Source of the DNA: a virus
Virus record (IMG/VR): IMGVR_UViG_3300045988_028413
Location: 1-18,373 of that record
DNA: 18,373 bases
Strand: one strand, 5' to 3'
The first letter of the stretch is position 1. Each line of letters starts with the position of its first letter. Position numbers and translations under genes: made by a program. The notes under the pieces are model-generated. The model worked only from the letters and a program-made list of their open reading frames with translations. It was not told the DNA's origin and searched no databases. Shown here in pieces: positions 1 through 18,373 of the stretch.

Positions 1-157
1 GGACGACAGCGTTTGCCATGGAATGGGGGAAATGCTCTTCCAGACAGGCAGCAATGTTAGATGTTTGTCTAAATATCTAATTGCTTACCGACCGGTTGGC
101 AACTGTGTTTTAATATTTTGCATTCGTTTGTTTTCGGGCGTGTCGTGTTTTTGTTTG

Positions 158-166
158 TGTTATAGT
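158..166 (+). promoter_or_regulatory. Extended -10 promoter candidate (TGtTATAGT) inside the ITR, upstream of the ITR gene
   Basis: tgtTATAGTgtag lies ~34 nt upstream of the ATG at 200 and matches the TGnTATAAT class seen elsewhere in this genome. The same element exists mirrored in the right ITR. Confidence 0.35.
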
Positions 167-199
167 GTAGTTATCAACTTCAAGGGAAGGAAAAATAAA

Positions 200-400
200 A
201 TGATTAACAACACCGTTATTAAGGATTACGCCGAGGATTATATTCTGAACAGTGGTCAGCAACTCTCTGATTTTGATATTGATGTGATTGTTGAGAATCT
301 GCATCATGTGGCGGTGGTCAATAATATGACTATTGAGGGTTATGAGGATTGTGATTCGTTTCCGTCTGATGATTTTGTGGAAGCGTTTGAGGAAGCGTGA
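200..400 (+). CDS. ITR-encoded small highly acidic protein (66 aa), function unknown; DNA-mimic candidate
   Basis: ATG at 200 is preceded by the SD-like gggaaggaaaaataaaATG. The product MINNTVIKDYAEDY...DDFVEAFEEA has 16 D/E against 1 K and 0 R. The longer 23-400 ORF has a Cys/Phe-rich N-terminal extension from T-rich DNA and is probably non-coding. An identical copy sits in the right ITR. Confidence 0.6.
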   Translation: MINNTVIKDYAEDYILNSGQQLSDFDIDVIVENLHHVAVVNNMTIEGYEDCDSFPSDDFVEAFEEA

Positions 401-419
401 TTTGGAAGGGAGTCTTGAC

Positions 420-650
420 ATGTGGTATTTCATTGTTACTAATGATGGTTTTCAGGTTTTTGAGGTTTTGTCTGATTGTGTGAAGCCTAGTCGCATGTTT
501 TATGCAACGTCGTTAAAAGCGTCGTTGGATGGCGTATTGTCTCATATCCGTCATGCGTATGCTGGTATGGATGTGAATGTGGATATTGATAATGCTACGT
601 TTGACCTAGACAACACTATGGTTGGCGTGGTGAAGGTGGTGTTGGTATAA
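420..650 (+). CDS. Hypothetical early protein (76 aa)
   Basis: ATG at 420 follows ggaagggagtcttgacATG. The ORF ends at TAA 648-650, which overlaps the next start (TAATG). No recognisable motif. Confidence 0.45.
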   Translation: MWYFIVTNDGFQVFEVLSDCVKPSRMFYATSLKASLDGVLSHIRHAYAGMDVNVDIDNATFDLDNTMVGVVKVVLV

Positions 651-817
651 TGATGTGTATGAGTATTATTGTTATCCCGTTTGCTATATGGCTGATTGGA
701 TTATGTGCGGTAGCGTTTCGTGAAGCACCGCGAGACGTGGGTGACGCGCTCTGTTTTTTGGTCATGCTTGTGGTATGTGTGGCTATTGTATTGGTTTTTG
801 TAGTGAAAGGTTTTTGA
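650..817 (+). CDS. Small hydrophobic membrane protein (55 aa, two predicted TM helices)
   Basis: MMCMSIIVIPFAIWLIGLCAVAF...LCFLVMLVVCVAIVLVFVVKGF shows two hydrophobic stretches. The ATG overlaps the upstream stop (TAATG), with gaaggtgg as a possible SD. It is shorter than the ORF-track cutoff and was found by reading the frame. Confidence 0.4.
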   Translation: MMCMSIIVIPFAIWLIGLCAVAFREAPRDVGDALCFLVMLVVCVAIVLVFVVKGF

Positions 818-819
818 TT

Positions 820-1065
820 ATGCGTTGCTGTGATGTGAAGGTTGCTGTGTTTCCGTCTCAGCACTTGGGTGGTGATGTGGAGTTGTGGTATTGCTCTCAT
901 AGTCAATCGTATAGGTTGGAGTATGATGTGGCGTTTTACTCGCCGGACGGCTTATGTTCGGCTGTGGCATTGGCGTCGTATAGTGCCACTGATTATGATC
1001 AAGTGGTGGATGTGCTTGTTGACGCCATCGATATTGCCCGCACTCCTCTCTTGGATAGGGATTGA
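820..1065 (+). CDS. Hypothetical acidic early protein (81 aa) with four Cys
   Basis: The ATG at 820 overlaps the upstream stop (tgattATG). The frame of the 775-1065 ORF starts MRCCDV...; its product is acidic and protein-like. The competing 842-1270 frame is Trp-rich and junk-like across the overlap. Confidence 0.4.
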   Translation: MRCCDVKVAVFPSQHLGGDVELWYCSHSQSYRLEYDVAFYSPDGLCSAVALASYSATDYDQVVDVLVDAIDIARTPLLDRD

Positions 1066-1066
1066 C

Positions 1067-1270
1067 ATGTATTTTTTTGGCTGGCTGCATTCGTGGTTTC
1101 ACAGGGGCTGTGAGTATGCTGACTTGTATTGGCGGTTGAGAGCGTTTTGGGCGGGTGTGAAGCATAAGCGTGGTGCCGATAGTCCGCCAAAACGTTGTAC
1201 TAGTTCTTTCCTGTGGGAAACGATGTGGATGGCTGGCTATAATAGTGCCGATGATACTTTGGAGTTTTAG
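1067..1270 (+). CDS. Hypothetical small Trp-rich basic protein (68 aa)
   Basis: An internal ATG in the 842-1270 frame begins directly after the stop of the 820-1065 gene (gggattgacATG). Only open frame here; coding status uncertain. Confidence 0.3.
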   Translation: MYFFGWLHSWFHRGCEYADLYWRLRAFWAGVKHKRGADSPPKRCTSSFLWETMWMAGYNSADDTLEF

Positions 1271-1272
1271 CC

Positions 1273-1446
1273 ATGTATGAAACTTTTGTCGCACTGGCGT
1301 ATTTGAGACATGGTGATAAGCCGCCTATCGAAGTGGGGTACGCTAATTCGTATGATGATGCCGCTACTCTGATTCGTAAGTGGGCGGCAGTGCCTTCGCG
1401 TACGCGCAATATCGCCTATTTTAAGGTGGAGAGGCGCTATTATGTT
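1273..1446 (+). CDS. Hypothetical protein (57 aa)
   Basis: ATG at 1273 comes two nt after the upstream TAG. The stop TAA 1444-1446 overlaps the next ATG at 1442 (ATGTTTAA), suggesting translational coupling. Below the ORF-track cutoff. Confidence 0.35.
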
Positions 1447-1960
1447 TAACCGTGGCGATGATCGTACGCCGATTTATCGGATGCGCCGGTTTGATGACGG
1501 GATTATGGAATCATTCCGTATTGTCAAGGCTACGCGGGGGCATACTCGTGAATTGAATCTCAGACGCTATGACATGGGCTATGGTGATTTCGAGTCGTGT
1601 TGCCGTGCGGTCAGCATGTTGTGTGAATTGTGGCGTGAAGCGCCCAGCGAGTGGTTTACGCAAGCCGTGATAACGGTGTCTCAGATTTGCGGGAGCATGT
1701 GTATTGGTGATGGACTTGCCGCCGCCCTCTCTCGCACGTATGATGTGGAATATTTGGATGGCACGGTGAATCCGCCTAACCTCATTGCATGGTGTGCCGT
1801 GTGTGCAGTCAAGGGAGCGACATCGTATGACTGTTGTACGATTTTCGACAATCCTCAAGCGCAAAACCTGATTATCGCTGTCTATAAAAATTTTGACAGA
1901 CTGGACACGACACGGTATAATGATACCGAATTAGAAAAAATCTTACTGCAAGGGAGGTAA
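1442..1960 (+). CDS. Hypothetical Cys-rich early protein (172 aa)
   Basis: Good SD (aaggtggagagg, 8 nt upstream of ATG). Eleven Cys, including SCCRAV, ICGSMCIG and WCAVCAV...YDCC; a zinc-binding host-takeover protein is possible. No recognisable catalytic motif. Confidence 0.6.
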   Translation: MFNRGDDRTPIYRMRRFDDGIMESFRIVKATRGHTRELNLRRYDMGYGDFESCCRAVSMLCELWREAPSEWFTQAVITVSQICGSMCIGDGLAAALSRTYDVEYLDGTVNPPNLIAWCAVCAVKGATSYDCCTIFDNPQAQNLIIAVYKNFDRLDTTRYNDTELEKILLQGR

Positions 1961-1963
1961 AAA

Positions 1964-2278
1964 TTGGCTAGAACCAAAACCGACATTTTCAGAACCCGCG
2001 TCTATGCCGTCCTTAAAGGCATGGAGCTGGTTGACGGTGATTTTATGGAAGCCGAGCACGTCATTGACGGGCGCTTGAAGGATGTCCGCGCGTATTCGAT
2101 TCGTGCAAAGAAATTGTTTCCTAATTTCATTCCACGTTCTATCAATATTTTTTCTAAAAAGGTTTCCATGAATGAGGAGACTTTTTACAAGTACGCTACT
2201 TTTGAGGAACCTCAGGAATGGAACCCCGAAGAACATACAAAACGACGCGCCGAAATTGAAAATAATGACGGCATGTGA
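1964..2278 (+). CDS. Putative p6-like dsDNA-binding/replication-initiation protein (104 aa)
   Basis: TTG start six nt after the strong SD GGGAGG. It is 104 aa with an acidic C-terminus and sits directly upstream of the SSB-like gene, as gene 6 precedes gene 5 in the phi29 early operon. The N-terminus MARTKTDIF...VLKGMELVDGDF loosely resembles my recollection of phi29 p6 (MAKMM...VDGEV). Weak. Confidence 0.4.
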   Translation: MARTKTDIFRTRVYAVLKGMELVDGDFMEAEHVIDGRLKDVRAYSIRAKKLFPNFIPRSINIFSKKVSMNEETFYKYATFEEPQEWNPEEHTKRRAEIENNDGM

Positions 2279-2865: not shown

Positions 2866-3825
2866 ATGTCTCGGAAGCAAAAGCATATCAAGGCACGTCA
2901 GGCCGCGCAAGCCCGTGCCGCACGCAATATTAAACAGCTCGGCGCTTACTCCCACTCGAACCTCGCTAAAACCGCAGACCAACAGTTAGTCAACATCGCA
3001 AAAACGCTGGGTAAGGAATGGGAGCGGCAGAAGAAACAGTCCATAGCGGAAGCGAAGGCAACCCCATATCATGCCACCGCCGTGGAAAAGCCGACGAAAA
3101 AAGACTACATGTTTGCCCAGCGCACACCCATCACGAACGCGCAAATTCAGGCGGAACCCGTGACGAAACGGCGCAAACTCCTGCGACAACAGCAACGGAA
3201 AATCAATGCGGCACGACGTAAGATCAATGAATGGAACAAAATGCAGGCCATGCCCCCGCGTAGCGTGTATGACCAGCGCGTGGCAGAACTTGAAGGCACC
3301 ACCGGTGAGGGTTTCGGGCGCACTCAAATCATCCCATCAAAACTCACCGACTTCCTGCAGATGACCAACGTGTTGAGTGATGAAGCATTCGTGCGAAGTC
3401 AATTGGAGAGCGGACACCGGAACGAACTACGTGAGCAGATGCACGATGTGGCCGAAATCTTGGGACTGCGTACCGAACAAAAACGCAAGCCGACTAAAAA
3501 ACGGAAGACAGAGACTCGACCCGACCTATACGACGATCATAATTGGCCGTCCTACATGAGTCGTGGACGCTATGAAGTTTTCGAGAAAATCTTGGCTACA
3601 ACGCTCGGCTCGAAACGTTTAAAGCGGTTCCGTCAACTGTCAGCCGCGCAAAAACGTGCGTTTATCGAACAGACAGACGCCCCCCGTATCGTGTTCGACT
3701 GGACAGTGTATGACCCCGTCCGACACGGTTTCACCTCAGTATTTCGAGATAACAGTGAGGGCTATCAGCGCTCACGGCGGCAATTCGATAGGTGGTTGGC
3801 GGAAGCTGGCGCACTGGAAAAGTAG
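2866..3825 (+). CDS. Putative terminal protein (TP) for protein-primed replication, 319 aa
   Basis: Immediately upstream of, and co-oriented with, the family-B DNA polymerase, as gene 3 is in phi29-like phages. Very basic N-terminus (MSRKQKHIKARQAAQARAARNIK) and K/R-rich patches (KRRKLLRQQQRK, KRKPTKKRKTETR) are typical of the TP DNA-binding domain. The linear genome with ITRs implies a TP. No sequence-level proof. Confidence 0.55.
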   Translation: MSRKQKHIKARQAAQARAARNIKQLGAYSHSNLAKTADQQLVNIAKTLGKEWERQKKQSIAEAKATPYHATAVEKPTKKDYMFAQRTPITNAQIQAEPVTKRRKLLRQQQRKINAARRKINEWNKMQAMPPRSVYDQRVAELEGTTGEGFGRTQIIPSKLTDFLQMTNVLSDEAFVRSQLESGHRNELREQMHDVAEILGLRTEQKRKPTKKRKTETRPDLYDDHNWPSYMSRGRYEVFEKILATTLGSKRLKRFRQLSAAQKRAFIEQTDAPRIVFDWTVYDPVRHGFTSVFRDNSEGYQRSRRQFDRWLAEAGALEK

Positions 3826-3852
3826 CGGTCAGTGATCAAGGGAAGTTATACT

Positions 3853-5304
3853 ATGACAGTGCAAGACAATAGGGTGGGATTATGGTGTGTGGATAACGTC
3901 ATACGATTTACGGATGGCACCGTGCTACGTGACATTATCGCCCCTAACCGGCTGTTGGCGTCCATTATGTCGGGTGGCAAACTCACAATATATGTGACTA
4001 ACCCAGACGTTTTAGACCCGTTTATTGCGCACGTCGTGCACTCCCTCCCCCACGATGAGCATAATGCTAACCTCAGCTGGGACGCCATTGTCTCCAAAAA
4101 AGGCAAGTTTTTCAGCTTCACGGTGCGTATAGATCGAGAAAATTCCGCACGATTTTTCGACATATCGAATCTTTTACGAGAGAATTGCCGTCTCACCATG
4201 ACCGACGCCCAGCTACTCAACATTTTGCGTGAGTATAATGACCGTGGCTTATGTAAGATTACGGCGGGCGGTGCGAGCATGGAAGCGTTCGCGTCCGGCG
4301 AGTGGAAATGGTATTACGACAAATTCCCCCAGCTGGAACCCGAAACTAAAAAGTCATTGCATGATGCCTATATCGGAGGATTCATGATCGCCAAAGAAGG
4401 CGTATATGGTAAGGCTATCGACGTTGATTGCAATAGCATGTATCCGAGCATTCTGAGGGACGAATGGCTCCCATGGGGCGAACCGGAACAATATGAAGGC
4501 AAATACGAAGAAGATAGCGACATGCCATTGCATTGTGATGAACTCACGTTCCGTGCGGAATTGAAACCAGACGGATACCCTTTCCTGCTCGACAATCGCA
4601 GTGTCTACGGACTCAACAGGCTCACTTCCACCCGTGGCTACATCACCCGCGTGCTCACTGATATCGACCAAGAACTGCTCTACGACAATTACGAGGTGAC
4701 TATATACAAGCATGTGCGAGGGTGGAAGTTCCGTCGCTCCAAGGGATTTTTTCGCTCGTTCGTCGATGAATGGGGGGAACTGAAACAGCGGGCGACGGGT
4801 GAGAAACGACAAATGGCCAAACTCATTATGAACGCCCTGGTTGGGAAAATGGCTAGTTTGCCCAAGGGTGCCGTCATGCTCCCTACCTCCAAAGATGGAA
4901 TTACCCTCGATTGGGATGTGGCGCAACGTGAGGAATCGAATTTGAAAACCGATTTTCTCCCCGTGCCCGTATGGGTGAATGCTTATGCACGTCGCAAACT
5001 TATGACCGCCTGCCATGCGAACGCAGATCGGCTACTGTATGCGAACACGGACGGGTGCATCCTATCCGGTTGGGATCCCGTGCGATCATGCGAGATACAT
5101 CCAACCGAACTTGGAAAGTGGAAGATTGCCGCACGATATGAAAAATTGACTATCCTCGGAATGAACCGCTATCAGGGTTGGCGGGATGATGGGGAGGTTG
5201 ACGTATGCATGGCCGGAAACATGTTTTCCCAGCCCATCCCCTACGAAAAGTTCAGGCATGGAACGCAAGTCATGGATGATTACGGGACAATGGTCATGCT
5301 ATAA
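3853..5304 (+). CDS. Protein-primed-type family B DNA polymerase (small, ~483 aa from ATG 3853; alternative GTG start at 3832)
   Basis: Motifs read in the translation: YIGGF (the YxGG/A motif); DVDCNSMYPS (motif A, Dx2SLYPS); KLIMNALVGKMAS (motif B, Kx3NSxYG); YANTDGC (motif C, YxDTDS); and a C-terminal LGKWKIAARYEK...NRY (KxY region). Strong SD aagggaag before ATG 3853. No D-x-E ExoI motif is visible in the first ~60 residues. Confidence 0.9.
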   Translation: MTVQDNRVGLWCVDNVIRFTDGTVLRDIIAPNRLLASIMSGGKLTIYVTNPDVLDPFIAHVVHSLPHDEHNANLSWDAIVSKKGKFFSFTVRIDRENSARFFDISNLLRENCRLTMTDAQLLNILREYNDRGLCKITAGGASMEAFASGEWKWYYDKFPQLEPETKKSLHDAYIGGFMIAKEGVYGKAIDVDCNSMYPSILRDEWLPWGEPEQYEGKYEEDSDMPLHCDELTFRAELKPDGYPFLLDNRSVYGLNRLTSTRGYITRVLTDIDQELLYDNYEVTIYKHVRGWKFRRSKGFFRSFVDEWGELKQRATGEKRQMAKLIMNALVGKMASLPKGAVMLPTSKDGITLDWDVAQREESNLKTDFLPVPVWVNAYARRKLMTACHANADRLLYANTDGCILSGWDPVRSCEIHPTELGKWKIAARYEKLTILGMNRYQGWRDDGEVDVCMAGNMFSQPIPYEKFRHGTQVMDDYGTMVML

Positions 5305-5305
5305 T
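5297..5305 (+). promoter_or_regulatory. Perfect extended -10 TGcTATAAT overlapping the DNA polymerase stop codon
   Basis: catgcTATAATgcc. Identical to the element at 2787-2795. It would fire a transcript across the 5306-5480 non-coding stretch. Confidence 0.4.
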
Positions 5306-5311
5306 GCCTAT

Positions 5312-5480
5312 TGTCTTCCTGAGCGTCGATTTTCGACTGGGATCAACATGAGTCGGACTGCCACGGCTGAGAATGCCGCCGACCGTGAACATCACTATCG
5401 TGGCGGTAGTGCCCTACGATTGTCAACTCGCGCTCACATAAGACGTTTCGACCCCGCGTGATTGCGGGGTCATTTATTTT
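5312..5480 (+). ncRNA. Candidate small non-coding RNA (promoter at 5297, intrinsic terminator at 5450-5480); possible packaging-RNA (pRNA)-like or regulatory RNA
   Basis: This is the longest non-coding stretch in an otherwise tightly packed genome. It is GC-rich with several short inverted repeats (gtcga-ttt-tcgac at 5325-5337; cacgg...ccgtg at 5362-5387; gccgccg...tggcggt). It is bracketed by a perfect extended -10 and a canonical terminator. The only ORF inside (37 aa from ATG 5348) lacks a convincing SD. Confidence 0.3.
5450..5480 (+). terminator. Rho-independent terminator (gaccccgc-gtgatt-gcggggtc + atttatttt)
   Basis: Perfect 8-bp GC-rich stem followed by a T-tract. It sits downstream of the DNA polymerase gene, and therefore of the early operon. 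Confidence 0.75.
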
Positions 5481-5489
5481 CTCGCCGCA

Positions 5490-5498
5490 TGATATAAT
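5490..5498 (+). promoter_or_regulatory. Perfect extended -10 promoter TGaTATAAT; probable late (structural) operon promoter
   Basis: gcaTGATATAATttt lies immediately after the terminator and 36 nt upstream of the scaffold-like gene, which has the strong SD ataaggagc. Confidence 0.55.
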
Positions 5499-5533: not shown

Positions 5534-5812
5534 ATGGCAGACCCAAACAATGACGGCGAGGAAAACACCACCCCGCCGCCGACCGAAGAGGAACAGCAGA
5601 CCGAAACCGTAAATGATGAAATCAAGCCGAAAGAACCGGAACCGGAACCGTCCGAACCGGACGTGAGCGCGCGACTTGACTCGATCGAAAAAGAATTGGC
5701 CGCGCTCAAGGCCATGATGGACACGCTCGGCTACAATGACCCCGACCCCGACCCCGACGATGACGGCGACGGCGACAACGACGGCGAGTCAATCGAAGAT
5801 CTGTTCGACTAA
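5534..5812 (+). CDS. Putative scaffolding protein (92 aa, highly acidic, central helix)
   Basis: Directly upstream of the major capsid gene, as gp7 is in phi29. Composition is low-complexity: PEPEPSEP and DPDPDPDDDGDGDNDGE repeats flanking a helical segment SARLDSIEKELAALKAMMDTLG. Strong SD AAGGAG. Confidence 0.5.
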   Translation: MADPNNDGEENTTPPPTEEEQQTETVNDEIKPKEPEPEPSEPDVSARLDSIEKELAALKAMMDTLGYNDPDPDPDDDGDGDNDGESIEDLFD

Positions 5813-5833: not shown

Positions 5834-7549
5834 ATGTCCAATATTCGACCCCTCGCGGGTAAGGGAGACGTTGAGATCTTCAACGCCGTCCGAAACGCCA
5901 CTTCACCGCAGTTTCAGACTCGCATTCCGAGCGCTACGCAGGGAAATATTCGCAATGCCGTGGATACCATGCGCAATTTTCCATATTTGCGCGACGAATT
6001 CACCGGTGTTTTGATTCAGCGTCTTATCGGTCTGTATATCCAGCATGCTGACTGGGATGATCCGCTTAAGCTTATCGGCTCCCCACGCACTCTGAAGCGC
6101 TACGGCTCCACGTACGAACAGGCCGCTGTTGGTTTGGTCAAGGCGCGTACCCGTAATTTTAATAAAGAGTACTTGGGTGATGATGTGTATGGGCGCTACT
6201 CACTGCCAACCGCAAGCGTATTCCACCCCCTTACTTTTGATCATTACTATCCGGTTACCATCCCAGAGGACGCCTTGCTCACCGCGTTCGATGGCGAGTC
6301 CGGCATGTCGGATTACATTTCAGAGATCATGAACGCGCCGATCTTGAGCGATCGTAACGACATGTACTTGATGAAGACGCAGACCTTTGCAGAATACGCT
6401 CGCAAGGGTGGCTTCTATCGTGTTCACACCCCTGATGTGGGGGCGGCAAACTCCACTGAAGCGGACGCCAAGGGACTGCTGCGACTCATCCAGCAGGTGG
6501 CGAACGAACTCAAGGCTAGCCCAATGTCAGCCATGCCACGATATAATGCCATGAGCTGGGTGACTCCATGGCGCGACTCGGAAGCTATCCTCTTTGCCAC
6601 CCCGCAGGTGATCGCCGCGCTTAATGTGGAAGCTCTCGCCGCCGCGTTTAATATTGACAAGGTTAATGTGCCGTATCGTATCATTCCGATCCCGGAAGAC
6701 ATGTTCGGTATCGGTGGGCAGGGCGGCAAGGTACAGGCCGTCTTGACCACGGAAGACTTCTTCTTCTGCTGGGACGAGATGTTGGAGACGACGAACAGCC
6801 CCGTTAATCCGATTGACGGCACTCGCAACATCTTCTACAAGCATAGGGGGTCTATCACCCCTAATCCGTTTGCTAACGCGGTTCTTTTTTGGACAGGCAA
6901 AGACTCCAATAAGTCCGTGACCTTGCCAGATACGCTCACCACTTCGAAGCCAGTCTTTGAATTGAAAGTGCAGAAATACGGCCAGCCCGCCATCACCCCG
7001 CAGAATGTGGAACGTGGCGATCTCGTGCAAGTGGTGTCTACCATCGAAAGCGCGAACAAGACTAAGGCGTCCTTCCAGCCGGTCGGCATCGAATACAAGG
7101 TCGAAGGCGCGACCTCCCAGTTTACCAGCATTGATAATGACGGTATCCTGCGCTGTGGCCTTGACGAAACCGCCGAAAGCCTCAAGGTTACCGCTCAGGC
7201 AACCTACATCAATCCGGCTACACCGGAAATCGACCAGACCGTTTCCGCTGCACTGGACGTGCCGGTTAAGGGTACTTGGGTCGGCGGATTCGTCACCGGG
7301 GCACTGAAAGAAATCCATGTTGACGGGGCAAGCACTGTCAAGCAAGGCGAGAGTATCAAACTGACCGCCTCGGTTGTCTTGTATGACGGCAATAAGGTTG
7401 ATATCAGCAACATGGCCGATTGGAATGTGGATGCGAACGCCACCGTCGATAAGACAGGCAAGGTCACTGGTGCGAGTGTTGGTACGGCCAGGGTTTCAGC
7501 CAAGTTCGCGGGTGTAGTAGGCAACAGGAATATCAGCGTCACCGCCTGA
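5834..7549 (+). CDS. Major capsid protein (571 aa) with C-terminal Ig-like (Big_2-type) domain
   Basis: Strong SD (gttaggagatatatataATG) and a terminator downstream. N-terminal EIFNAVRNATSPQFQTRIPSATQGNIRNAV resembles the phi29 gp8 N-terminus ([29 protein letters not shown]) as I recall it. The last ~90 aa (VKQGESIKLTASVVLYDGNKVDISNMADWNVDANATVDKTGKVTGASVGTARVSAKF) have the Big_2 signature. Position after the scaffold matches. Confidence 0.85.
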   Translation: MSNIRPLAGKGDVEIFNAVRNATSPQFQTRIPSATQGNIRNAVDTMRNFPYLRDEFTGVLIQRLIGLYIQHADWDDPLKLIGSPRTLKRYGSTYEQAAVGLVKARTRNFNKEYLGDDVYGRYSLPTASVFHPLTFDHYYPVTIPEDALLTAFDGESGMSDYISEIMNAPILSDRNDMYLMKTQTFAEYARKGGFYRVHTPDVGAANSTEADAKGLLRLIQQVANELKASPMSAMPRYNAMSWVTPWRDSEAILFATPQVIAALNVEALAAAFNIDKVNVPYRIIPIPEDMFGIGGQGGKVQAVLTTEDFFFCWDEMLETTNSPVNPIDGTRNIFYKHRGSITPNPFANAVLFWTGKDSNKSVTLPDTLTTSKPVFELKVQKYGQPAITPQNVERGDLVQVVSTIESANKTKASFQPVGIEYKVEGATSQFTSIDNDGILRCGLDETAESLKVTAQATYINPATPEIDQTVSAALDVPVKGTWVGGFVTGALKEIHVDGASTVKQGESIKLTASVVLYDGNKVDISNMADWNVDANATVDKTGKVTGASVGTARVSAKFAGVVGNRNISVTA

Positions 7550-7570: not shown

Positions 7571-7606
7571 TAGGTGCGAGAATTATAATCTCGCACCTAT
7601 TGTTTT
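7571..7606 (+). terminator. Rho-independent terminator whose 9-nt loop carries TATAAT (taggtgcgag-aattataat-ctcgcaccta + ttgtttt), followed by the AGGAGG SD of the next gene
   Basis: Perfect 10-bp stem plus a U-tract. It shares the 14-mer attgttttaggagg with the 15765-15780 cassette. Confidence 0.7.
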
Positions 7607-7616
7607 AGGAGGGATC

Positions 7617-11701: not shown

Positions 11702-12301
11702 ATGGACGGAATAAACCTATGTGCCGCACCGCTCGACATTGACCCACGACAACGGTATTTCACCACAGTACAACCGTTTTCGTACCGCGATACCTTGACA
11801 GTGTTGGGATATGTGCAGGAGGTGGCCGAACATCTTGACCATCTCAGAGAACAGCTTGACAATCTCGCCAAAGACGAAAACGCGGACATCGAAGCCATCA
11901 AACAGCTGATAGCCGGTTTTAATGAGCAGTTCGAGCGTATTAACAAGACGCTGGATGACTTGGAAAAACAGGTCGGACAGTATGAAGATTCAGGCCTTAC
12001 ATATAATCCGACCCGCGGCAAATACGAGGATAGCAAAAACACGAACCGAGACGTATACCGAGAGTTGGCAGTGTTCGGGGCGCGAGTCAATCAAATGGCT
12101 CAACTTAGCGTGCCAATGGCGGCGGCGCACACCTGCTTGGAGTTCGCCGTGCTCGGTAACAAAACCATTTTCCACAATGATGAGCCACGCATCACACCGC
12201 GTGATGTGCACATGGATGATGGGGAGCCGGTCAATCCGCTAACGGTTGAAAATCTCGCCAATGGCGTCGTGGTCAACAATTTTATGAAAACTGCAAAATA
12301 A
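11702..12301 (+). CDS. Hypothetical structural (tail/appendage-region) protein, 199 aa, with a predicted coiled-coil segment
   Basis: Strong SD (gattggaggattaATG). Coiled-coil-like EHLDHLREQLDNLAKDENADIEAIKQLIAGFNEQFERINKTLDDLEKQV. Lies between the collar and fibre genes. Confidence 0.5.
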   Translation: MDGINLCAAPLDIDPRQRYFTTVQPFSYRDTLTVLGYVQEVAEHLDHLREQLDNLAKDENADIEAIKQLIAGFNEQFERINKTLDDLEKQVGQYEDSGLTYNPTRGKYEDSKNTNRDVYRELAVFGARVNQMAQLSVPMAAAHTCLEFAVLGNKTIFHNDEPRITPRDVHMDDGEPVNPLTVENLANGVVVNNFMKTAK

Positions 12302-12319
12302 CAGGAAGGATTACAGGAA

Positions 12320-12673
12320 ATGACTAGTAAAACCACAAATTATAATCTCGAAAAATATGATGCAACCGATTCGCCGAACCTTCAGGGTGCATACAATCGG
12401 TCAATAGACATTATTGACATGACGCTGAAAGCCCAGTCAGACAAAATCGACACCATCCCGACACCGGAAAAACTACCGGACGGGCTGAAAGCGTTCTGCA
12501 CCGCCTTGGGATTGACCAATTCGAATGCGGGAGCGCTCGGTACCGCGCTCAATCATCTCCTCAACCGCACTCCTGCCAGCAATGGCGGACAGTATACGGT
12601 CAAAAATCTCAACGACACGAAGGTTACTGCGGAAGGATTGCCGTTCGTGTCCACCACCTCTACGGGGAAGTGA
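12320..12673 (+). CDS. Short fibre/appendage protein (117 aa) carrying the shared N-terminal anchor module (copy A)
   Basis: SD caggaaggattacaggaaATG. N-terminal TTNYNLEKYDATDSPNLQGAYNRSIDIIDMTLKA is paralogous to the N-termini of the two following genes. Confidence 0.55.
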   Translation: MTSKTTNYNLEKYDATDSPNLQGAYNRSIDIIDMTLKAQSDKIDTIPTPEKLPDGLKAFCTALGLTNSNAGALGTALNHLLNRTPASNGGQYTVKNLNDTKVTAEGLPFVSTTSTGK

Positions 12674-12679
12674 CATATT

Positions 12680-12862
12680 ATGGCAGACGGTCAGCAGACC
12701 ACGCCCGTGGATTCCGCCGCGTACGACGTGACCAGACATTGGGGACTTCCGCTCTACAATGATGCAACCACTATGGACTTAAGAGATGGCTACAATCATG
12801 CCATGCGTATGATTGACCAGATTCTAACCCAGCTGCAGACTCAAATTCGAGAAAAGGATTAG
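12680..12862 (+). CDS. Stand-alone fibre N-terminal anchor module (60 aa; copy B)
   Basis: HWGLPLYNDATTMDLRDGYNHAMRMIDQILTQL aligns with NYGLNLYGDNDPADLRDGYNGSMRTIDTTLKT at the start of the 515-aa fibre. It has its own start (ggggaagtgacatattATG) and a different frame from the downstream gene. It consists of the module plus a short helical tail only. Confidence 0.5.
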   Translation: MADGQQTTPVDSAAYDVTRHWGLPLYNDATTMDLRDGYNHAMRMIDQILTQLQTQIREKD

Positions 12863-12867
12863 CATAA

Positions 12868-14415
12868 ATGGCTACAGTATATACGAAAACCGACAATTAC
12901 GGTTTGAACTTGTATGGGGACAATGACCCCGCCGACCTGAGAGACGGTTACAACGGCTCCATGCGCACCATCGACACCACTTTGAAAACGCACCTGAATC
13001 GTATCGAGGGTGTGGAAGCTCGTGAAACCCATGATGAAGCGGTCATGAAGGCACTGCTTGTGGATAACACGGTGGATAACGCCACCGCGTCGAAAACCAA
13101 ATGGGATAAAGCAGGTATCGACGCCGCCGCCGCCGCAAGCAAGGCCGATGCAAACACAGCAATTCTCACCGCGCTCGGAGCTGGTTCCACCGTCAATGCC
13201 GCCGCACAAAAAACCAAGTGGGATAAGGCAGTGGACACCGCCAATAGCAACGCTCGGGCATTGACCGCGCTCGGGAGCGATACTACCGAGACCGCCACCG
13301 CAAATAAAACCAAGTGGAATGCCGCTTCCACCACCGCTACTAGCAATAATCAGGCATTGACCGCCCTTGGCAGCAACACAGTCGGCACCGCCACCGCCAA
13401 TAAATCCAAGTGGGACAAGGCTGCGACGGATGCCGCCGCCGCTCTCAACGCCGTCCACACCCCAGACAAGCTCAAGGATTATGTGGTAGTGTTGGGTGAT
13501 AGTTGGGTGGACGGATATTATGGTGGTGCGAAACATATCGACCAGTCACCCGCCGTCGCCATCAAGGAAAAACTCAGCCCACAACGCTTTTACTACAAGG
13601 GTTCCAGCGCTGGCGGTTTTGCTGTGTCCGGTGACGACGGGACGTTTATGGACATTTGGAACACCGTTCCAGATAAAAACAAGGTGACGGCGGTTATCGT
13701 CATCGGCGGACAGAATGACGCCACTGGACTCGAACAGCAACGTACCAGCGAATCCGTCATTACCTCCAAGGCTCGCGAACTCATGCAGACCATTCACGCG
13801 GAAGCGCCGAACGCCGAGATCCATGTCTGCCCCATGGTGTTGGCAGTCGGCCAAACATTAACAAAAACTCAGAACCACGGCTCGGATAGGGCGCACCGTC
13901 TTGCAGTTGTGAAGGCATTGACCCTCAACTTGAAGGATTTAGGTTTCGGCTGGATTCATGTACATGAGGGCGGATACCGTATCGGCGTGGTGGCTTCTCA
14001 GGCTTCGGACGGTGGCGACGGTGGTGATGGTGCGCACCTGAGCCGTGGGGGATACGTGCTTGCCGGATATTGGATAGCCCACTGCGTCGCCGCAGGTATC
14101 GACCTATGGCCCACGAACTACGGAGGTCCAAGCGAAAGCCAAATCAGCGGCAAATGGGATTACGTCAACATCTACGAGCGTGATGGGATATTGTCCATCG
14201 GCTTCAAAGTCAACTATAACGCGAAGCCGAACAATGCCGCCCGTATCTTCAAACTGCCGAAATGGGCAACCATCGGCAACTCCCATTTCTATCCGAATTT
14301 CGACGGCAAAGGATTCGTAGCCATTGACGGCAATACGCTCAGCGTCCAGAACGCCGGAAATTTGGACAATACGGGCGTTCTCGTAGGTTCCTATATGATT
14401 CCCGCAGGAATGTGA
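12868..14415 (+). CDS. Tail fibre / appendage protein (515 aa): N-terminal anchor module (copy C), four ~32-aa KTKWDKA tandem repeats, an SGNH/GDSL-hydrolase (esterase) domain and a C-terminal beta-rich putative binding domain
   Basis: SGNH blocks read directly: block I VVLGDSWVDG (GDS nucleophile), block III IGGQNDA (GxND), block V DGGDGAHLS (DxxH). Repeats NATASKTKWDKA / NAAAQKTKWDKA / TATANKTKWNAA / TATANKSKWDKA. SD aaaaggatt. Confidence 0.75.
   Translation: MATVYTKTDNYGLNLYGDNDPADLRDGYNGSMRTIDTTLKTHLNRIEGVEARETHDEAVMKALLVDNTVDNATASKTKWDKAGIDAAAAASKADANTAILTALGAGSTVNAAAQKTKWDKAVDTANSNARALTALGSDTTETATANKTKWNAASTTATSNNQALTALGSNTVGTATANKSKWDKAATDAAAALNAVHTPDKLKDYVVVLGDSWVDGYYGGAKHIDQSPAVAIKEKLSPQRFYYKGSSAGGFAVSGDDGTFMDIWNTVPDKNKVTAVIVIGGQNDATGLEQQRTSESVITSKARELMQTIHAEAPNAEIHVCPMVLAVGQTLTKTQNHGSDRAHRLAVVKALTLNLKDLGFGWIHVHEGGYRIGVVASQASDGGDGGDGAHLSRGGYVLAGYWIAHCVAAGIDLWPTNYGGPSESQISGKWDYVNIYERDGILSIGFKVNYNAKPNNAARIFKLPKWATIGNSHFYPNFDGKGFVAIDGNTLSVQNAGNLDNTGVLVGSYMIPAGM
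13078..13480 (+). repeat. Four in-frame tandem repeats (period 96-117 nt, about 32 aa) inside the fibre gene
   Basis: Repeat starts near 13078, 13195, 13291 and 13387 (acc gcc acc gc[agc] aat aaa [at]cc aag tgg ga[tc] aag gc). The matching antisense ORFs 12859-13536 and 12948-13346 are artefacts of this repetitive GC-rich stretch. Confidence 0.75.
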
Positions 14416-14421
14416 TATAGT
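14413..14421 (+). promoter_or_regulatory. Extended -10-like element TGaTATAGT overlapping the fibre stop codon (ggaATGTGAtatagt)
   Basis: Same ATGTGATATA arrangement as at 2271-2284. It is followed by the conserved tcggcatatgat motif, which also appears at 15692-15703. Confidence 0.4.
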
Positions 14422-14430
14422 CGGCATATG

Positions 14431-14463
14431 ATAGCCATGCCACTATAATGGTGGTATGGCTAT
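14431..14463 (+). promoter_or_regulatory. 13-bp hairpin (atagccatgccac-tataatg-gtggtatggctat, one G-T pair) with TATAAT in the loop; the 3' arm contains the CHAP-gene start codon (14456)
   Basis: Read directly from the sequence. It could occlude the start codon and SD in the mRNA. Confidence 0.45.
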
Positions 14464-15670
14464 TACTTTCTCACAGTGGATTGATCAGACAAAAAACCGA
14501 TACTGGGATATGGACGGCGCGTATGGGGCGCAATGCTGGGACTTATGGGCAAAATATTCCATGGATATGTACGGCATGTCCATACAGGACTGTATTACCC
14601 CTACCGGTTATGCGGGCGGACTGTACACCTCATATCCCGTGTCGGCTCGATGCGAACAAGTGTACGAACGTATCCCTGCCAATGGGTACTCGCCTGTGGC
14701 GGGGGATGTAGCAATATGGGGATACGGCACATATACCCCCTACACGCATGTTGCGATTGTGGCTAGCAATGATGGGGTGAAAAACAACAGCATTTACATC
14801 ATCACCCAAAATCCGGACGCAAGCGCACTCAAATGGTTTCCCACCGCTGGACTGTTGGGCTACCTACATCCCCGTGCCATGCCGAAGCCGGACGTGGACA
14901 ATCCGACCGGCGACAACAATCAAGGACACCCCGACACAGCGCGGGGCGGCGCGTGGATACACTGGCAGGGTGACAATCTGTACTTGCACGAAACAGACAA
15001 TAATGGCGCAAGGACTCGCATTTTTTATAAGACAACCGCCAATAATTTTTCGGAAAAAGCGTCGCAAGGCCAACCGTCCGACTCGCAAGGACAAGGCCAC
15101 CCATCCAGCTCGGTCAGTGCGGAAAACTCTTATGCCCTCTATGTGGTCGGCACAGTGGAAGCGGGATTACGCTGGGATGCAGTTGAAGCGGCCAACTTGC
15201 AGGGTATCGGCATTGCGCAATGGAGTTTCGGACGCCGATTGCAAGTGTTGAATGCCATGAAGACGGCAGACCCAACCGGCTATACGGCATTCAAAACCGC
15301 CGCGCCGCAGATTGCGGCACTCATGGAATCAGGGGGCGAGTTTACTCGGAGCCTCACGCAGGCAGAAGCGGCGGCATTTCAAGCGTGGGCGGCACGTAGT
15401 GAATCCCATGAGGGTCAGCGCAGGCAGTTCGCCGAAGACTACGTCGGATATCCGCACCAGTATGATGATAATAAAATGCAGATACTATGGGTTACGGCAT
15501 ACCACCAATCACCCGCGAACGCGCTCAAGGTGCCGAAGGCGTCGAATCTCGCACAGCTCAAAAACAATATTCTGAGCACGTACCCATTTCAGCCGTACGT
15601 GAATCGATACAATCAGGCGTACTCATTGTTGAGTGTGTGGGATGGAAAATCGAATCCGCCCGCATTCTAA
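14456..15670 (+). CDS. Tail-associated cell-wall hydrolase (phi29 gp13 analogue by position): N-terminal CHAP peptidase domain plus ~240-aa C-terminal domain of unknown, possibly glycosidase-like, function
   Basis: CHAP Cys in GAYGAQCWDLW and His in YTPYTHVAIV, then IITQNP. It is paralogous to the endolysin CHAP (DMDGAYGGQCWDLW...NHVAIVV...MSQNP). It lies between the fibre and the packaging ATPase. The C-terminal region (YALYVVGTVEAGLRWDAVEAANLQGIGIAQWSF...) is unassigned. Confidence 0.75.
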   Translation: MAITFSQWIDQTKNRYWDMDGAYGAQCWDLWAKYSMDMYGMSIQDCITPTGYAGGLYTSYPVSARCEQVYERIPANGYSPVAGDVAIWGYGTYTPYTHVAIVASNDGVKNNSIYIITQNPDASALKWFPTAGLLGYLHPRAMPKPDVDNPTGDNNQGHPDTARGGAWIHWQGDNLYLHETDNNGARTRIFYKTTANNFSEKASQGQPSDSQGQGHPSSSVSAENSYALYVVGTVEAGLRWDAVEAANLQGIGIAQWSFGRRLQVLNAMKTADPTGYTAFKTAAPQIAALMESGGEFTRSLTQAEAAAFQAWAARSESHEGQRRQFAEDYVGYPHQYDDNKMQILWVTAYHQSPANALKVPKASNLAQLKNNILSTYPFQPYVNRYNQAYSLLSVWDGKSNPPAF

Positions 15671-15675
15671 ACGTG

Positions 15676-15684
15676 TGATATAAT
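15676..15684 (+). promoter_or_regulatory. Perfect extended -10 promoter TGaTATAAT upstream of the packaging ATPase gene
   Basis: acgtgTGATATAATaagg, six nt after the CHAP gene stop. Followed by the conserved tgtcggcatgtgat motif. Confidence 0.5.
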
Positions 15685-15734: not shown

Positions 15735-15774
15735 GAGCGTAACGGTGGTCATGACGTTACGCTCTCATTGTTTT
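15735..15774 (+). terminator. Hairpin (gagcgtaacg-10 nt loop-cgttacgctc) + tcattgtttt, followed by AGGAGG and ATG 15788; second copy of the terminator-SD cassette
   Basis: 10-bp perfect stem and U-tract. It shares attgttttaggagg with 7599-7613. Confidence 0.6.
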
Positions 15775-15787
15775 AGGAGGTGAGCGT

Positions 15788-16855
15788 ATGGCATTGCAAA
15801 CATTGGCCGAAGACGACTATTATGACTTGCATAACCTGCTCACCCGCAACGCTCCATGGAATTTCGTGATCGGAGCACGCGGCTTAGGCAAGACATTTGC
15901 GGCAAAGAGATATGGCATAAAAGAGTACATTAAGCACGGCCATGAGTTCATCTATCTCAGGCGTACGGACGTAGAACAACACCGCAAGGAAACCTTCTTC
16001 AAGGACATTCAAGAGTTCTTCCCCTCTTACGAATTTCGTGTGAATGGTGAAAAAGGACAATTGCATAAGACATCATGGGATGAAAAGGACTGGCGCACAT
16101 GCTGTTATTTCGTCGCCCTATCCCAAGCGGGCGGACTAAAATCAGTGGCCTACCCTAAAGTGCACTTGATTATTTTCGATGAAATCTTCCCCGACAATCT
16201 CAGATTCTTAAGTAACGAAGTGAACTCGTTTAGCGAGTTTTACAATACCGTTGACCGTTGGCAGGATAGAACAAAAGTACTATTCCTCTCTAATGCCGTC
16301 CAAAAGGCTAATCCATATTTTGCGAAATACCGACTTGACATTGGAGCACAGCAATCCAATCAACAGCAATACAAATTGTATTGTGGTGGTTTCGTATGTC
16401 TCGAATTGGCAGACTATGGCGGATTCAGTGCGAAAGTCGCACAGTCCAAGTTCGGACGATTTCTTGAGCAGTATGACGGGGATTATGCGGATTATGCAAT
16501 CAGAAACAGGTTCCGAGATGAATCGGACACATTACTGGCACCCATCCCCCCAGATGGCGAACTCTCCTACATTTTGGACACTACCGATTATGCGCGTTTT
16601 GGAGTGTGGGTTTCCGTATCCGAACGCGATGGGCATGTTTCACAATATGTTTCACGACGTATCCCCAAAGACAATACCAGACCCGTCTACACGCTCGACC
16701 CCAACCATGTTGACGAACACACTTGGTACGTTAAAAAGTCAGATGATATTATGCGACGGTTAACCACCGGCTATCGGCTGGGAAAAATACGGTTCGATGA
16801 TTCACAGGTGAAAGCCGATTTTGGCTTGATCATCGGAGAATTACTAGGAAAGTAA
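15788..16855 (+). CDS. DNA packaging ATPase (phi29 gp16-like), 355 aa
   Basis: NFVIGARGLGKTFAAKRYGIKEYIKHGHEFIYLRR compares with phi29 gp16 NFVIGARGIGKSYAMKVYPINRFIKYGEQFIYVRR (Walker A). HLIIFDEIF is the Walker B. LFLSNAVQKANPYF compares with ICLSNAVSVVNPYF. Confidence 0.95.
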   Translation: MALQTLAEDDYYDLHNLLTRNAPWNFVIGARGLGKTFAAKRYGIKEYIKHGHEFIYLRRTDVEQHRKETFFKDIQEFFPSYEFRVNGEKGQLHKTSWDEKDWRTCCYFVALSQAGGLKSVAYPKVHLIIFDEIFPDNLRFLSNEVNSFSEFYNTVDRWQDRTKVLFLSNAVQKANPYFAKYRLDIGAQQSNQQQYKLYCGGFVCLELADYGGFSAKVAQSKFGRFLEQYDGDYADYAIRNRFRDESDTLLAPIPPDGELSYILDTTDYARFGVWVSVSERDGHVSQYVSRRIPKDNTRPVYTLDPNHVDEHTWYVKKSDDIMRRLTTGYRLGKIRFDDSQVKADFGLIIGELLGK

Positions 16856-16866
16856 GGAGACAATTA

Positions 16867-17238
16867 ATGACAATGACGGCAACGGACGTGTGGTGTGTGT
16901 TCGCAGTAGTCTTCTTCATCATTGTGGACTACGTCACCGGTATTGCAAAAGCCATCTTGCAAGATACGCTCAGCTCACAGAAAATGCGACAAGGCCTATG
17001 GCACAAGTTCGCCTACCTCATGCTAACCTTAGTCGCCTATTTCGTAGACATGATTAATCTACACGTTGACTTGGGACTTCCAGTCAGCGTGTTCGTATGC
17101 ACAGTAGGCGGTATTAGCCTCATCGAACTCACCTCCATTTTGGAAAACATTACCGCCATCAACCCCGAACTAGCGGACGCCCCATTTATGAGCGTGTTCG
17201 CAAATACCAATACCCCCAAACATAAGAAGGAAAACTAG
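16867..17238 (+). CDS. Holin (123 aa, three predicted TM segments; phi29 gp14 / Gram-positive holin family-like)
   Basis: Strong SD (taaggagacaattaATG). TM1 VWCVFAVVFFIIVDYVTGIAKAIL carries the D-x-V-x-G motif seen in phi29 gp14 (VVDTVLGVL). Two further hydrophobic segments. Sits immediately upstream of the endolysin. Confidence 0.8.
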   Translation: MTMTATDVWCVFAVVFFIIVDYVTGIAKAILQDTLSSQKMRQGLWHKFAYLMLTLVAYFVDMINLHVDLGLPVSVFVCTVGGISLIELTSILENITAINPELADAPFMSVFANTNTPKHKKEN

Positions 17239-17239
17239 A

Positions 17240-17917
17240 ATGAATATTCAAGAATGGATGAACAGCGTTAACGGACAGGTAGTAGACATGGACGGCGCAT
17301 ACGGAGGACAATGCTGGGACTTATGGAGTTCCTACGCCCGAAACGTCTATGGCATTCCAGCCGCCGACACCAACACCGTTGACGGATACGCCGCAAGCGT
17401 CTATTCTGCACAATATGACCGCTCCCGCGCTCTACAAGACACGTTCTACAGAGAAGCAGGAAACTACACGCCAGTTTACGGTGACGTAGCATTTTGGAAC
17501 GGAGCAGGCATGAACCACGTAGCCATCGTAGTCAAAGACAATGGCAACGGCACCTTGGAAACCATGTCACAGAACCCAAACAAAGCCGGATACGTGACCC
17601 TCAGCAAGAACGGTATCATCGGCTACTTCCACCCGCGCACAGCAAACACGCCCGCACCGGCACCAGCAAACAACAACGTAACAGTCATTCCACGCACATA
17701 CAAGGTCAACGTGGACGTGCTTAACGTGCGTTCGGCACCGTCAACCTCAGCACCAGTAGTAGCCCAATACCATTACGGACAAACCGTCAACCTATCCGAA
17801 GGAGGCACTATCGCAGACGGATACATTTGGGCACACTATACAGGCGGCTCAGGAGCCACTAGATACGTCGCACTCGCACCCGCAGACAAATCAACGTGGT
17901 ATCTCGTATTCGCCTGA
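17240..17917 (+). CDS. Endolysin: N-terminal CHAP amidase/peptidase plus C-terminal SH3b-type cell-wall-binding domain (225 aa)
   Basis: CHAP Cys (DMDGAYGGQCWDLW) and His (MNHVAIVV). Linker TANTPAPAPANNN. C-terminal VNVDVLNVRSAPSTSAPVVAQYHYGQTVNL...GYIWAHY...RYVALA is typical of SH3_3/SH3_5. SD agaaggaaaactagaATG overlaps the holin stop. Confidence 0.85.
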   Translation: MNIQEWMNSVNGQVVDMDGAYGGQCWDLWSSYARNVYGIPAADTNTVDGYAASVYSAQYDRSRALQDTFYREAGNYTPVYGDVAFWNGAGMNHVAIVVKDNGNGTLETMSQNPNKAGYVTLSKNGIIGYFHPRTANTPAPAPANNNVTVIPRTYKVNVDVLNVRSAPSTSAPVVAQYHYGQTVNLSEGGTIADGYIWAHYTGGSGATRYVALAPADKSTWYLVFA

Positions 17918-17931
17918 TTTGACAGCATAAG

Positions 17932-17966
17932 AAAGCCCCTAGGCAAACCCCTAGGGGCTTTTACTT
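17932..17966 (+). terminator. Rho-independent terminator (aaagcccctagg-caaacc-cctaggggcttt + ttacttttacc) at the inner edge of the right ITR
   Basis: 12-bp perfect stem (containing a cccctagggg palindrome) plus a T-tract. It ends the rightward late operon 7 nt before the ITR, into which the leftward ITR gene copy converges. Confidence 0.75.
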
Positions 17967-17972
17967 TTACCT

Positions 17973-18373
17973 ATCACGCTTCCTCAAACGCTTCCACAAA
18001 ATCATCAGACGGAAACGAATCACAATCCTCATAACCCTCAATAGTCATATTATTGACCACCGCCACATGATGCAGATTCTCAACAATCACATCAATATCA
18101 AAATCAGAGAGTTGCTGACCACTGTTCAGAATATAATCCTCGGCGTAATCCTTAATAACGGTGTTGTTAATCATTTTATTTTTCCTTCCCTTGAAGTTGA
18201 TAACTACACTATAACACAAACAAAAACACGACACGCCCGAAAACAAACGAATGCAAAATATTAAAACACAGTTGCCAACCGGTCGGTAAGCAATTAGATA
18301 TTTAGACAAACATCTAACATTGCTGCCTGTCTGGAAGAGCATTTCCCCCATTCCATGGCAAACGCTGTCGTCC
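17973..18373. repeat. Right inverted terminal repeat (~401 bp)
   Basis: Reverse complement of 1-401; see the left ITR entry. Confidence 0.9.
17974..18174 (-). CDS. Second, identical copy of the ITR-encoded acidic 66-aa protein
   Basis: Mirror image of 200-400, and the only minus-strand gene in the window. Its own promoter-like TGtTATAGT is mirrored at about 18208-18216. Confidence 0.6.
   Translation of the reverse strand: MINNTVIKDYAEDYILNSGQQLSDFDIDVIVENLHHVAVVNNMTIEGYEDCDSFPSDDFVEAFEEA

Follow-up and report, generated by a model that had tools for sequence, protein, structure and literature searches.

Among described phages, the closest relatives of the DNA considered here, virus record IMGVR_UViG_3300045988_028413 of the IMG/VR database (18,373 nucleotides, analyzed over its whole length and called the window below), are four Bifidobacterium isolates: BP1 (PQ571273.1) and BD811P1, BD811P2 and BD811P3 (OP172658-60). 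We address the identity of the phage represented by the window, its terminal inverted repeats (ITRs), and a small RNA gene located between the genes for its DNA polymerase and its putative scaffolding protein. In PMC12694917, BP1 is treated as a podovirus related to Salasmaviridae whose genus is undefined, and BD811P1 stands for one of the clusters of a survey of phi29-like phages published in 2024 (PMC11476376). All four isolates have the layout of the window. BP1 has the same gene order, including an inward-reading gene after the endolysin gene, and shares the promoter core of the ITR, with the packaging ATPases 96% and the polymerases 88% identical, but differs in the terminal gene cassettes, in the Ig-like tip of the capsid protein, and in the fibre, which is pectate-lyase-like in BP1 and a GDSL esterase in the window. 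BD811P1-3 possess the same architecture and protein set (76-79% identity for the polymerase, 87-88% for the ATPase), but their fibre and lysin modules differ from those of the window.

More distant systems share the layout as well. The Bifidobacterium asteroides phages BadAztec and BadAargau (Badaztecvirus), whose host inhabits the honeybee gut, are arranged like the window and have a perfect ITR of 259 nt, with the polymerase and the ATPase of BadAztec1 34 and 43% identical, respectively, to those of the window. In Av-1 (Actinomyces) and Cp-1 (Streptococcus), colinear early genes are followed by the genes for the terminal protein and the polymerase, by the late genes and by an ATPase-holin-endolysin block, and then by inward-reading right-end genes; protein identities with the window are only 30-36%, and, unlike in the window, no gene is annotated within their ITRs (210 nt in Av-1, 236 nt in Cp-1). 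The Lactococcus phage asccphi28 is also phi29-like, with a non-coding ITR annotated at 577 nt, but, unlike the window, it has a divergent gene layout. Bacillus phage phi29 itself (Salasmaviridae) possesses homologous single-stranded DNA-binding protein (SSB), polymerase, capsid protein, gp9, gp10, gp11 and gp16, but it differs in its divergent early and late operons, its 6-bp ITR, its lysis genes preceding the ATPase, its p6 and p4 proteins (features not found in the window) and its packaging RNA (pRNA) encoded at the left end. An earlier note on this sequence had taken the colinear layout, the long gene-bearing ITRs and the terminal position of the lysis genes as three differences from classical phi29-like phages; because Av-1, Cp-1 and BadAztec1 have the same layout, these set the window apart from Bacillus phi29 only.

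With high probability, the window is the nearly complete genome of a virulent, uncultivated podophage whose host is a human-gut Bifidobacterium and which belongs to the phi29-like lineage that includes BP1 and BD811P1-3. In megablast comparisons the window is 81% identical to BP1 over 79% coverage, approximately 76% identical to BD811P1 and BD811P3, and 75% identical to BD811P2. It also possesses the nucleotide similarity and the full synteny by which the BP1/BD811P1-3 lineage (VC_807 of PMC12694917) is recognized. Relatives of its portal protein, at 92-98% identity, are found on at least 134 IMG/VR contigs, of which the closest to the window, L008 and L016 (contigs are cited by our working numbers), are 87-88% identical over 94-95% of its length (87.4% over 95% for L016). 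By a BLASTN-based estimate, the intergenomic similarity of the window is approximately 66% with BP1, approximately 51% with BD811P1-3 and approximately 83% with the uncultivated contig L008. The line between genera is drawn at 70% intergenomic similarity. With BP1 at approximately 66% by that estimate, the window falls below the line, and the phage is a new species within a known lineage and arguably a new genus relative to the cultured isolates.

Pfam, PHROG and PDB matches for the SSB, the family B polymerase, the capsid protein, the connector and the gp16 ATPase bear out the assignment to phi29-like podophages with replication genes of the protein-primed type, and a Gram-positive host, as had been proposed, agrees with the isolates of the lineage infecting Bifidobacterium, from which a Bifidobacterium host may be deduced for this phage as well. 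The proposal of a distinct lineage is contradicted by the four cultured isolates and by the IMG/VR contigs just mentioned, all belonging to a group already in print (PMC12694917; PMC11476376). The candidate terminal protein has 776 metagenome relatives, one of which is identical (DAL27668.1, from an 18373-nt record named “MAG TPA_asm: Caudoviricetes sp.”), and the window is therefore already public in GenBank, as a third-party annotation (TPA) metagenome-assembled genome (MAG). The database comparison recommended earlier returned no near-identical described isolate, BP1 being the best, and did return the deposited sequence of the window itself.

The feature of this genome that has no described counterpart outside the Bacillus phages, if we read it correctly, is located downstream of the polymerase gene:
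5297-5481, + strand: small RNA gene, candidate pRNA, recognized by promoter, covarying structure and terminator
5490-5498, + strand: late promoter with extended -10 element TGATATAAT, exact in 28 of 30 relatives, TGGTATAAT in two

A gap of 229 nt, conserved in 82 relatives, separates the polymerase gene from the scaffold gene. It opens with an extended -10 element, TGCTATAAT (5297-5305), that overlaps the polymerase stop codon and reads TATAAT or TATGAT in 30 of the 30 sequences examined. A structured RNA of 136 nt (5311-5446) starts approximately 7 nt after this element and is followed by an intrinsic terminator (5450-5471) with a T run and with compensatory changes in its stem. As it possesses a conserved promoter and a terminator of its own, the product should be a discrete RNA of approximately 170 nt. 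RNAalifold recovers 47 pairs, 21 of them with compensatory changes; 97.9% of the paired cells can pair, versus at most 54.5% when the partners are slid along the alignment, and the 21 covarying pairs compare with at most 7 when slid, with none of 500 shuffles reaching the observed values. In the resulting fold, a long bulged stem joins the 5' and 3' ends and leads to a three-way junction with two arms. One arm carries a one-sided bulge of 7 nt, ACUGCCA, and the other is a hairpin with the loop CGUGGCG. The UGCCA of the bulge is complementary to the UGGCG of the loop, a complementarity preserved in 78 relatives; wherever the second position of the bulge is A, the loop contains a U.

The pRNA of phi29 consists of a helix A, a three-way junction, and two arms of which one carries the CE-bulge, or “right-hand” loop, that pairs in trans with the “left-hand” loop of arm D, and this bulge/loop pair assembles the RNA into a ring on the connector. 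A 2024 review places pRNA only in phi29 and related Bacillus phages. The RNA of the window may be the pRNA of the Bifidobacterium phi29-like phages, with a gene located elsewhere in the genome than in phi29 and a sequence unrelated to that of the phi29 pRNA; we assign somewhat less than an even chance to this reading.

A similar weight, again just short of even, goes to the alternative that the RNA at 5311-5446 is not a pRNA and is either a cis element (an attenuator or riboswitch-like control of read-through, or a stabilizer of the mRNA 3' end) or a regulatory small RNA. Its location directly upstream of an intrinsic terminator and of the late operon would be natural for such an element, and the location differs from that of the phi29 pRNA, at the left end of the genome. 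In Rfam scans, neither the whole window nor 5290-5490 gave a pRNA match, and the covariance model built from the lineage (R1) found nothing in Av-1, BadAztec1, phi29 or Cp-1. What speaks against a cis element is that this lineage and BadAztec1 alike have a conserved extended -10 ending approximately 7 nt ahead of the first helix, along with the separate terminator, and what speaks specifically for a pRNA is that the phi29 pRNA has the same topology, a three-way junction in which a bulge on one side of one arm is complementary to the loop of the other. BadAztec1 (L104, 12680-12870, - strand) possesses the same arrangement as the window, with TGCTATAGT over the polymerase stop codon, a junction RNA with a long stem and a strong terminator, though this RNA escapes detection by the covariance model. 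This pRNA-like RNA is the one lead from the window that truly merits pursuit.

As to the ends of the genome, the following features are involved, RBS standing for ribosome-binding site:
1-54, mirrored at 18320-18373, no strand: non-phage chimeric tag, fragment of a Faecalibacterium P-type ATPase gene, recognized by identity to Faecalibacterium and absence from relatives
55-401, + strand: left ITR arm, phage part, truncated on the outside; perfect inverted repeat, with 55-200 homologous to the terminal regions of many relatives
17973-18319, - strand: right ITR arm, phage part, perfect inverted repeat, with the second copy of cassette A (17974-18174, - strand)
158-166, + strand (mirror 18208-18216, - strand): early promoter, extended -10 element TGTTATAGT, with an RBS at 182-190; core conserved at both ends of relatives
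200-400, + strand (copy 17974-18174, - strand): cassette A, encoding a very acidic, small helical protein of 66 aa, with conserved homologues, RBS and promoter

The window had been taken for a complete genome with perfect 401-bp ITRs. The repeat itself is present in the sequence, its arms (1-401 and 17973-18373) being 100% complementary over 401 nt, but only positions 55-401 are phage DNA. Positions 1-54 are 100% identical to two Faecalibacterium MAG contigs (L114, L122) and 98% identical to Faecalibacterium prausnitzii ATCC 27768, falling in Faecalibacterium genomes within a P-type ATPase gene, with a DKTGTLT motif nearby, and a 29-mer from within this stretch has exact matches in the genomes of Faecalibacterium and related Clostridia. 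No counterpart of 1-54 was found in approximately 100 related loci. Contig L110, which stems from another assembly, matches the window at 100% identity from position 55 until past 470 and diverges from it exactly between positions 54 and 55, outside of which it carries 115 nt of other, lineage-typical sequence, including the palindrome CTAACCTACGGTTACGTAACCGTAGG, also present in relatives. By these comparisons, both ends of the window carry a mirrored bacterial tag that is an assembly chimera and not phage DNA, because 1-54 is Faecalibacterium sequence, is absent from relatives and is replaced in L110; the join adjoins a palindrome, a typical break point of assemblies. As its ends are chimeric, the window is not a complete genome.

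The position of the missing termini can be estimated from relatives. The sequence (GT)GGGAGGGGTGTGGGTTTG is probably the physical terminus: no fewer than 10 ends, belonging to at least eight related contigs, fall within a few bases of it. The phage represented by the window would be expected to end at the ...GGGAGGGGTGTGGG terminus. In L100 the shared terminus is found 288 nt further out than the position corresponding to 55 of the window. Approximately 290 nt of true terminus thus appear to be missing from each end of the record, suggesting a true ITR of approximately 635 nt and a genome of approximately 18.8 kb. The non-coding ITR of relatives (L100, 150-260; L081, 30-140; L091, 1-110) contains tandem copies of TTGACACTGTGTCAATGGTTGTATATGCAACA with internal palindromes, and a long palindrome centred on GTTACGGTTACGTAACCGTAAC, just inside which the window record breaks. 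These repeats and palindromes may serve in protein binding or as parts of an origin. For BP1, too, the deposited ends are unlikely to be the physical ones. Its record (L001) contains an inverted repeat of only 148 nt, offset from the left end (380-527 versus 19316-19463), and the 379 extra bases at that end seem to duplicate part of gp1, as a stretch of gp1 is encoded by their first 70 nt and bases 70-89 are identical to 731-750. The BD811P records likewise lack the termini, the ITR of BD811P2 being 55 nt and BD811P1 and BD811P3 having none.

Could the ITR be wholly an artefact, produced by fold-back at a palindrome or by the assembler copying one end onto the other, with the real repeats being short? 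We consider this very improbable, even if a number of observations would fit: the arms are 100% identical, as if a single graph node had been used twice, the outer 54 nt have been shown to be an artefact, relatives have a palindrome immediately outward of position 55, and exact ITRs of 119 nt (100% identity) recur in the IMG/VR contigs L017, L026, L035, L053, L019 and L020, which look like k-mer overlaps of the assembler at a longer collapsed repeat and under-report the true ITR. However, relatives possess ITRs of 107-357 nt whose arms, as they differ by 1-4%, were assembled separately, the isolate records of BadAztec1 and Av-1 contain ITRs of 259 and 210 nt, and the promoter core is present at both ends of dozens of contigs. 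Moreover, a different assembly, probably of the same sample, contains a contig of 17571 nt which, beginning at position 402 of the window, is exactly as long as the distance between the arms, which is what a repeat boundary between 401 and 402 and between 17972 and 17973 yields in an assembly graph. Two of the 119-nt repeats sit within homologues of gene 2 and of genes 3-4, and the respective ITRs must therefore exceed approximately 520 and approximately 900 nt. With these (at least 516 nt and, by deduction, at least 900 nt), with ITRs of 354-357 nt in other relatives, and with asccphi28, the ITR of the window can no longer be called unusually long.

Some points do weigh against a nearly complete Bifidobacterium phage genome with a gene-bearing repeat. 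The perfect identity of the arms is equally expected from one graph node used twice and so does not count as independent evidence, and two variants carrying cassette A at opposite ends could, if mixed, give the appearance of an ITR with a gene. The physical ends, the protein linkage and the ITR copy number are predictions from assembled sequence, and the host is deduced from relatives only.

An ITR that bears a gene is mildly unusual, but it is real and recurs within the lineage. The 125-aa open reading frame (ORF) from position 23 was rejected in favour of the 66-aa ORF at 200-400, which has an RBS, a promoter and, among the matches listed, 208 homologues of 65-76 aa, almost all of exactly 66 aa and all within the lineage. 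The protein contains 16 D/E versus 1 K/R; its structure model (pLDDT 91, small helical) gave no informative match in a fold search. At both ends of relatives, the core TTTCGGGCGTGTCG, the extended -10 TGTTATAGT, GTAGTTATCAACTTCAAGG as the RBS and an ATG precede a small inward-reading gene. Several unrelated families of first genes (A-E) are found behind this common promoter in relatives (L006-L102). One family is cassette A, present at the right end only in L057, L046, L030, L076 and L067 and at the left end only in L012 and L078. The first gene of L025 resembles a chimera of the B and A cassettes. The border of the repeat varies as well, falling directly after the ATG in BD811P2 and one base past the stop codon in the window.

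Panhandle and template-switch repair are known in other protein-primed replicons, and a model for this lineage may be put forward. As soon as the host is infected, the identical promoters of both ITRs would drive expression of the first gene at either end, and the basic 319-aa protein encoded ahead of the polymerase, as the terminal protein, would act as primer for strand-displacement replication starting at both ends. Copying of one end onto the other, through a panhandle or through template-switch repair, would shift the ITR border and move cassettes between the termini. In relatives the repeat stops at the start codon, with cassette A at one end only, and in the window it would have spread inward over the whole first gene, that for the acidic protein, producing two copies. 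We infer from the sequences compared that in this lineage the ends are copied onto each other and that border and cassettes shift as a result. From its position, size and charge one may guess that the product of cassette A is an immediate-early factor of host takeover or anti-defence.

The weakest alternative is the one first proposed, a complete genome of an unseen phi29-like lineage set apart by its colinear layout, by long ITRs with a gene in them and by a lysis cassette at the terminus, and we give it hardly any credence, for while no described isolate is near-identical to the window (BP1, at approximately 66% intergenomic similarity, is the nearest) and no whole-gene ITR is annotated in the records of phi29, Cp-1, Av-1 or asccphi28, the same layout is present in the cultured relatives and in Av-1, Cp-1 and BadAztec1, at least 134 close contigs exist in IMG/VR, the ITR of asccphi28 is longer, the sequence has already been deposited, and the ends are chimeric.

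The remaining genes form a single rightward array, interrupted by the terminator after the polymerase gene and by the extended -10 late promoter ahead of the scaffold gene. All credible genes are encoded on the + strand, the right ITR copy being the sole exception, in agreement with the unidirectional layout described earlier:
420-650, 650-817, 820-1065, 1067-1270, 1273-1449 and 1442-1960, + strand: six small early genes, ORFs with RBSs, all but 1067-1270 called in independent assemblies
1964-2278, + strand: conserved early protein of 104 aa, 93% identical to BP1 gp17 and 28% to its BadAztec1 homologue
2346-2783, + strand: phi29-type SSB (Pfam Phi29_Phage_SSB, 5.8e-18; PHROG 6243)
2866-3825, + strand: candidate terminal protein, 319 aa, pI 10.3, a probable assignment
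3832-5304 (likely start ATG 3853), + strand: protein-primed-type family B DNA polymerase (Pfam DNA_pol_B_2, 9e-30)
5534-5812, + strand: putative scaffolding protein, 92 aa, pI 4.1, by position only, directly upstream of the capsid gene like phi29 gp7 and Cp-1 orf8
5834-7549, + strand: major capsid protein with C-terminal Ig-like domain (Pfam Phi29_MCP, 4e-58; Big_2)
7617-9857, + strand: tail knob, gp9-like (Pfam phi29_gp9_C, 4.5e-9; PHROG 2248, 5e-82)
9916-10854 (ORF open from 9847), + strand: portal or upper collar connector (Pfam Phage_connector, 3.7e-39; gene call of 312 aa)
10857-11669, + strand: lower collar or adaptor (PHROG 3225, 4e-29; PHROG 5472, 1e-20)
11702-14415 (11702-12301, 12320-12673, 12680-12862, 12868-14415), + strand: appendage/fibre module, a variable host-range module
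14456-15670, + strand: tail-associated cell-wall hydrolase, N-terminal CHAP and a weak lysozyme-like match (Pfam, PHROGs)
15788-16855, + strand: gp16-type DNA packaging ATPase (Pfam Podovirus_Gp16, 9.6e-45)
16867-17238, + strand: holin (Pfam)
17240-17917, + strand: CHAP+SH3b endolysin (Pfam)
17931-17962, no strand: hairpin terminator, probably bidirectional, where the late transcript meets the inward right-end transcript, with a similar hairpin in BP1

No tRNAs were found in the window, and the whole-window Rfam scan produced no credible family. The gene order given in the earlier note stands, by Pfam and PHROG matches, for SSB, polymerase, capsid, tail knob, portal, collar, fibre, tail lysin, ATPase, holin and endolysin. 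It does not stand for the “p6-like” protein, that of 1964-2278, for which BLASTP against phi29 p6 gave no alignment and hhalign a probability of 0.2%, and it stands in part for the scaffold and terminal proteins, neither of which has a Pfam or PHROG family match, the former being placed by position and the latter having weak fold support. The terminal protein candidate also yielded nothing in BLASTP against the Av-1 terminal protein, in a PDB profile search or in hhalign against the terminal proteins of phi29 and Av-1, but the homologous terminal protein of BadAztec1 matches it at E 9e-17, and a terminal protein remains the probable function. No Pfam or PHROG matches were found for the small early proteins.

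The polymerase matches that of phi29 (1xhx) at E 2.5e-42 over phi29 residues 181-498, and is called at 483 aa in other assemblies. In an alignment with phi29, Cp-1 and Av-1, all of which keep the ExoI, ExoII and ExoIII residues, the polymerases of the window (3832-4240), BP1, BD811P and BadAztec1 lack the ExoI Asp/Glu, have Ser for Asn in ExoII and Leu for Tyr in ExoIII, and have an N-terminal (exonuclease) domain shorter by approximately 55 residues. Polymerases of this type may thus be devoid of proofreading.

Compared with BP1, the window varies in its terminal cassettes, in the Ig tip of the capsid protein and in the fibre module; relative to L008 and L016, essentially only the terminal cassettes differ. 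No homology to BP1 is detected for the Ig-like C-terminal tip of the capsid protein (7288-7531) or for the fibre module (12100-14429), the latter also being absent from BD811P. The fibre gene is found at 93-94% identity only in L008 and L016, with other relatives matching only its first approximately 360-460 nt. These differences represent modular exchange of surface and host-range parts. The fibre encoded at 12868-14415 contains a GDSL/SGNH esterase domain (Pfam Lipase_GDSL, 3e-5, a weak match). Three tandem repeats of 96 nt (32 aa; 13140-13413) are located in the shaft of this 515-aa protein, and its N-terminal approximately 40 aa resemble those of the 117-aa protein encoded at 12320-12673.

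A second TGATATAAT extended -10 element is located at 15676-15684, in the 117-nt gap ahead of the ATPase gene, and the 21 nt of the RBS region of this gene (15760-15780) repeat those of the tail knob gene (7592-7612), suggesting that packaging and lysis genes are transcribed as a late unit of their own. Strand skews are strong and opposite at the two ends of the window (1-2000 and 17000-18373), the first kb having a GC skew of +0.36 and an AT skew of -0.27, with the right end reversed and hardly any skew in the middle. Such a pattern is compatible with the displaced strand remaining single-stranded for longer at each end, or with early genes differing in codon usage. Minus-strand genes in the first 2 kb, as the skew might suggest, were considered and rejected, the + strand ORFs having RBSs, being nearly all called in other assemblies and being conserved in relatives.

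Overall, as a genome, the window represents one further species-level member of an abundant and already cultured group of gut Bifidobacterium phages, and carries little weight as such. As a record, it is a clear case of a contig with a perfect ITR that looks complete, yet whose repeat ends in a bacterial chimera, and with the 119-nt repeats of its relatives also considered, completeness calls based on ITRs are unreliable for this lineage. The moving ITR border and the swapping of cassettes bear on the repair and the diversification of protein-primed termini. If the RNA encoded downstream of the polymerase gene is indeed a pRNA, it would be the first one outside the Bacillus phages to be supported by covariation, RNA-dependent packaging would extend beyond those phages, and a second, divergent pRNA would become available for comparison.

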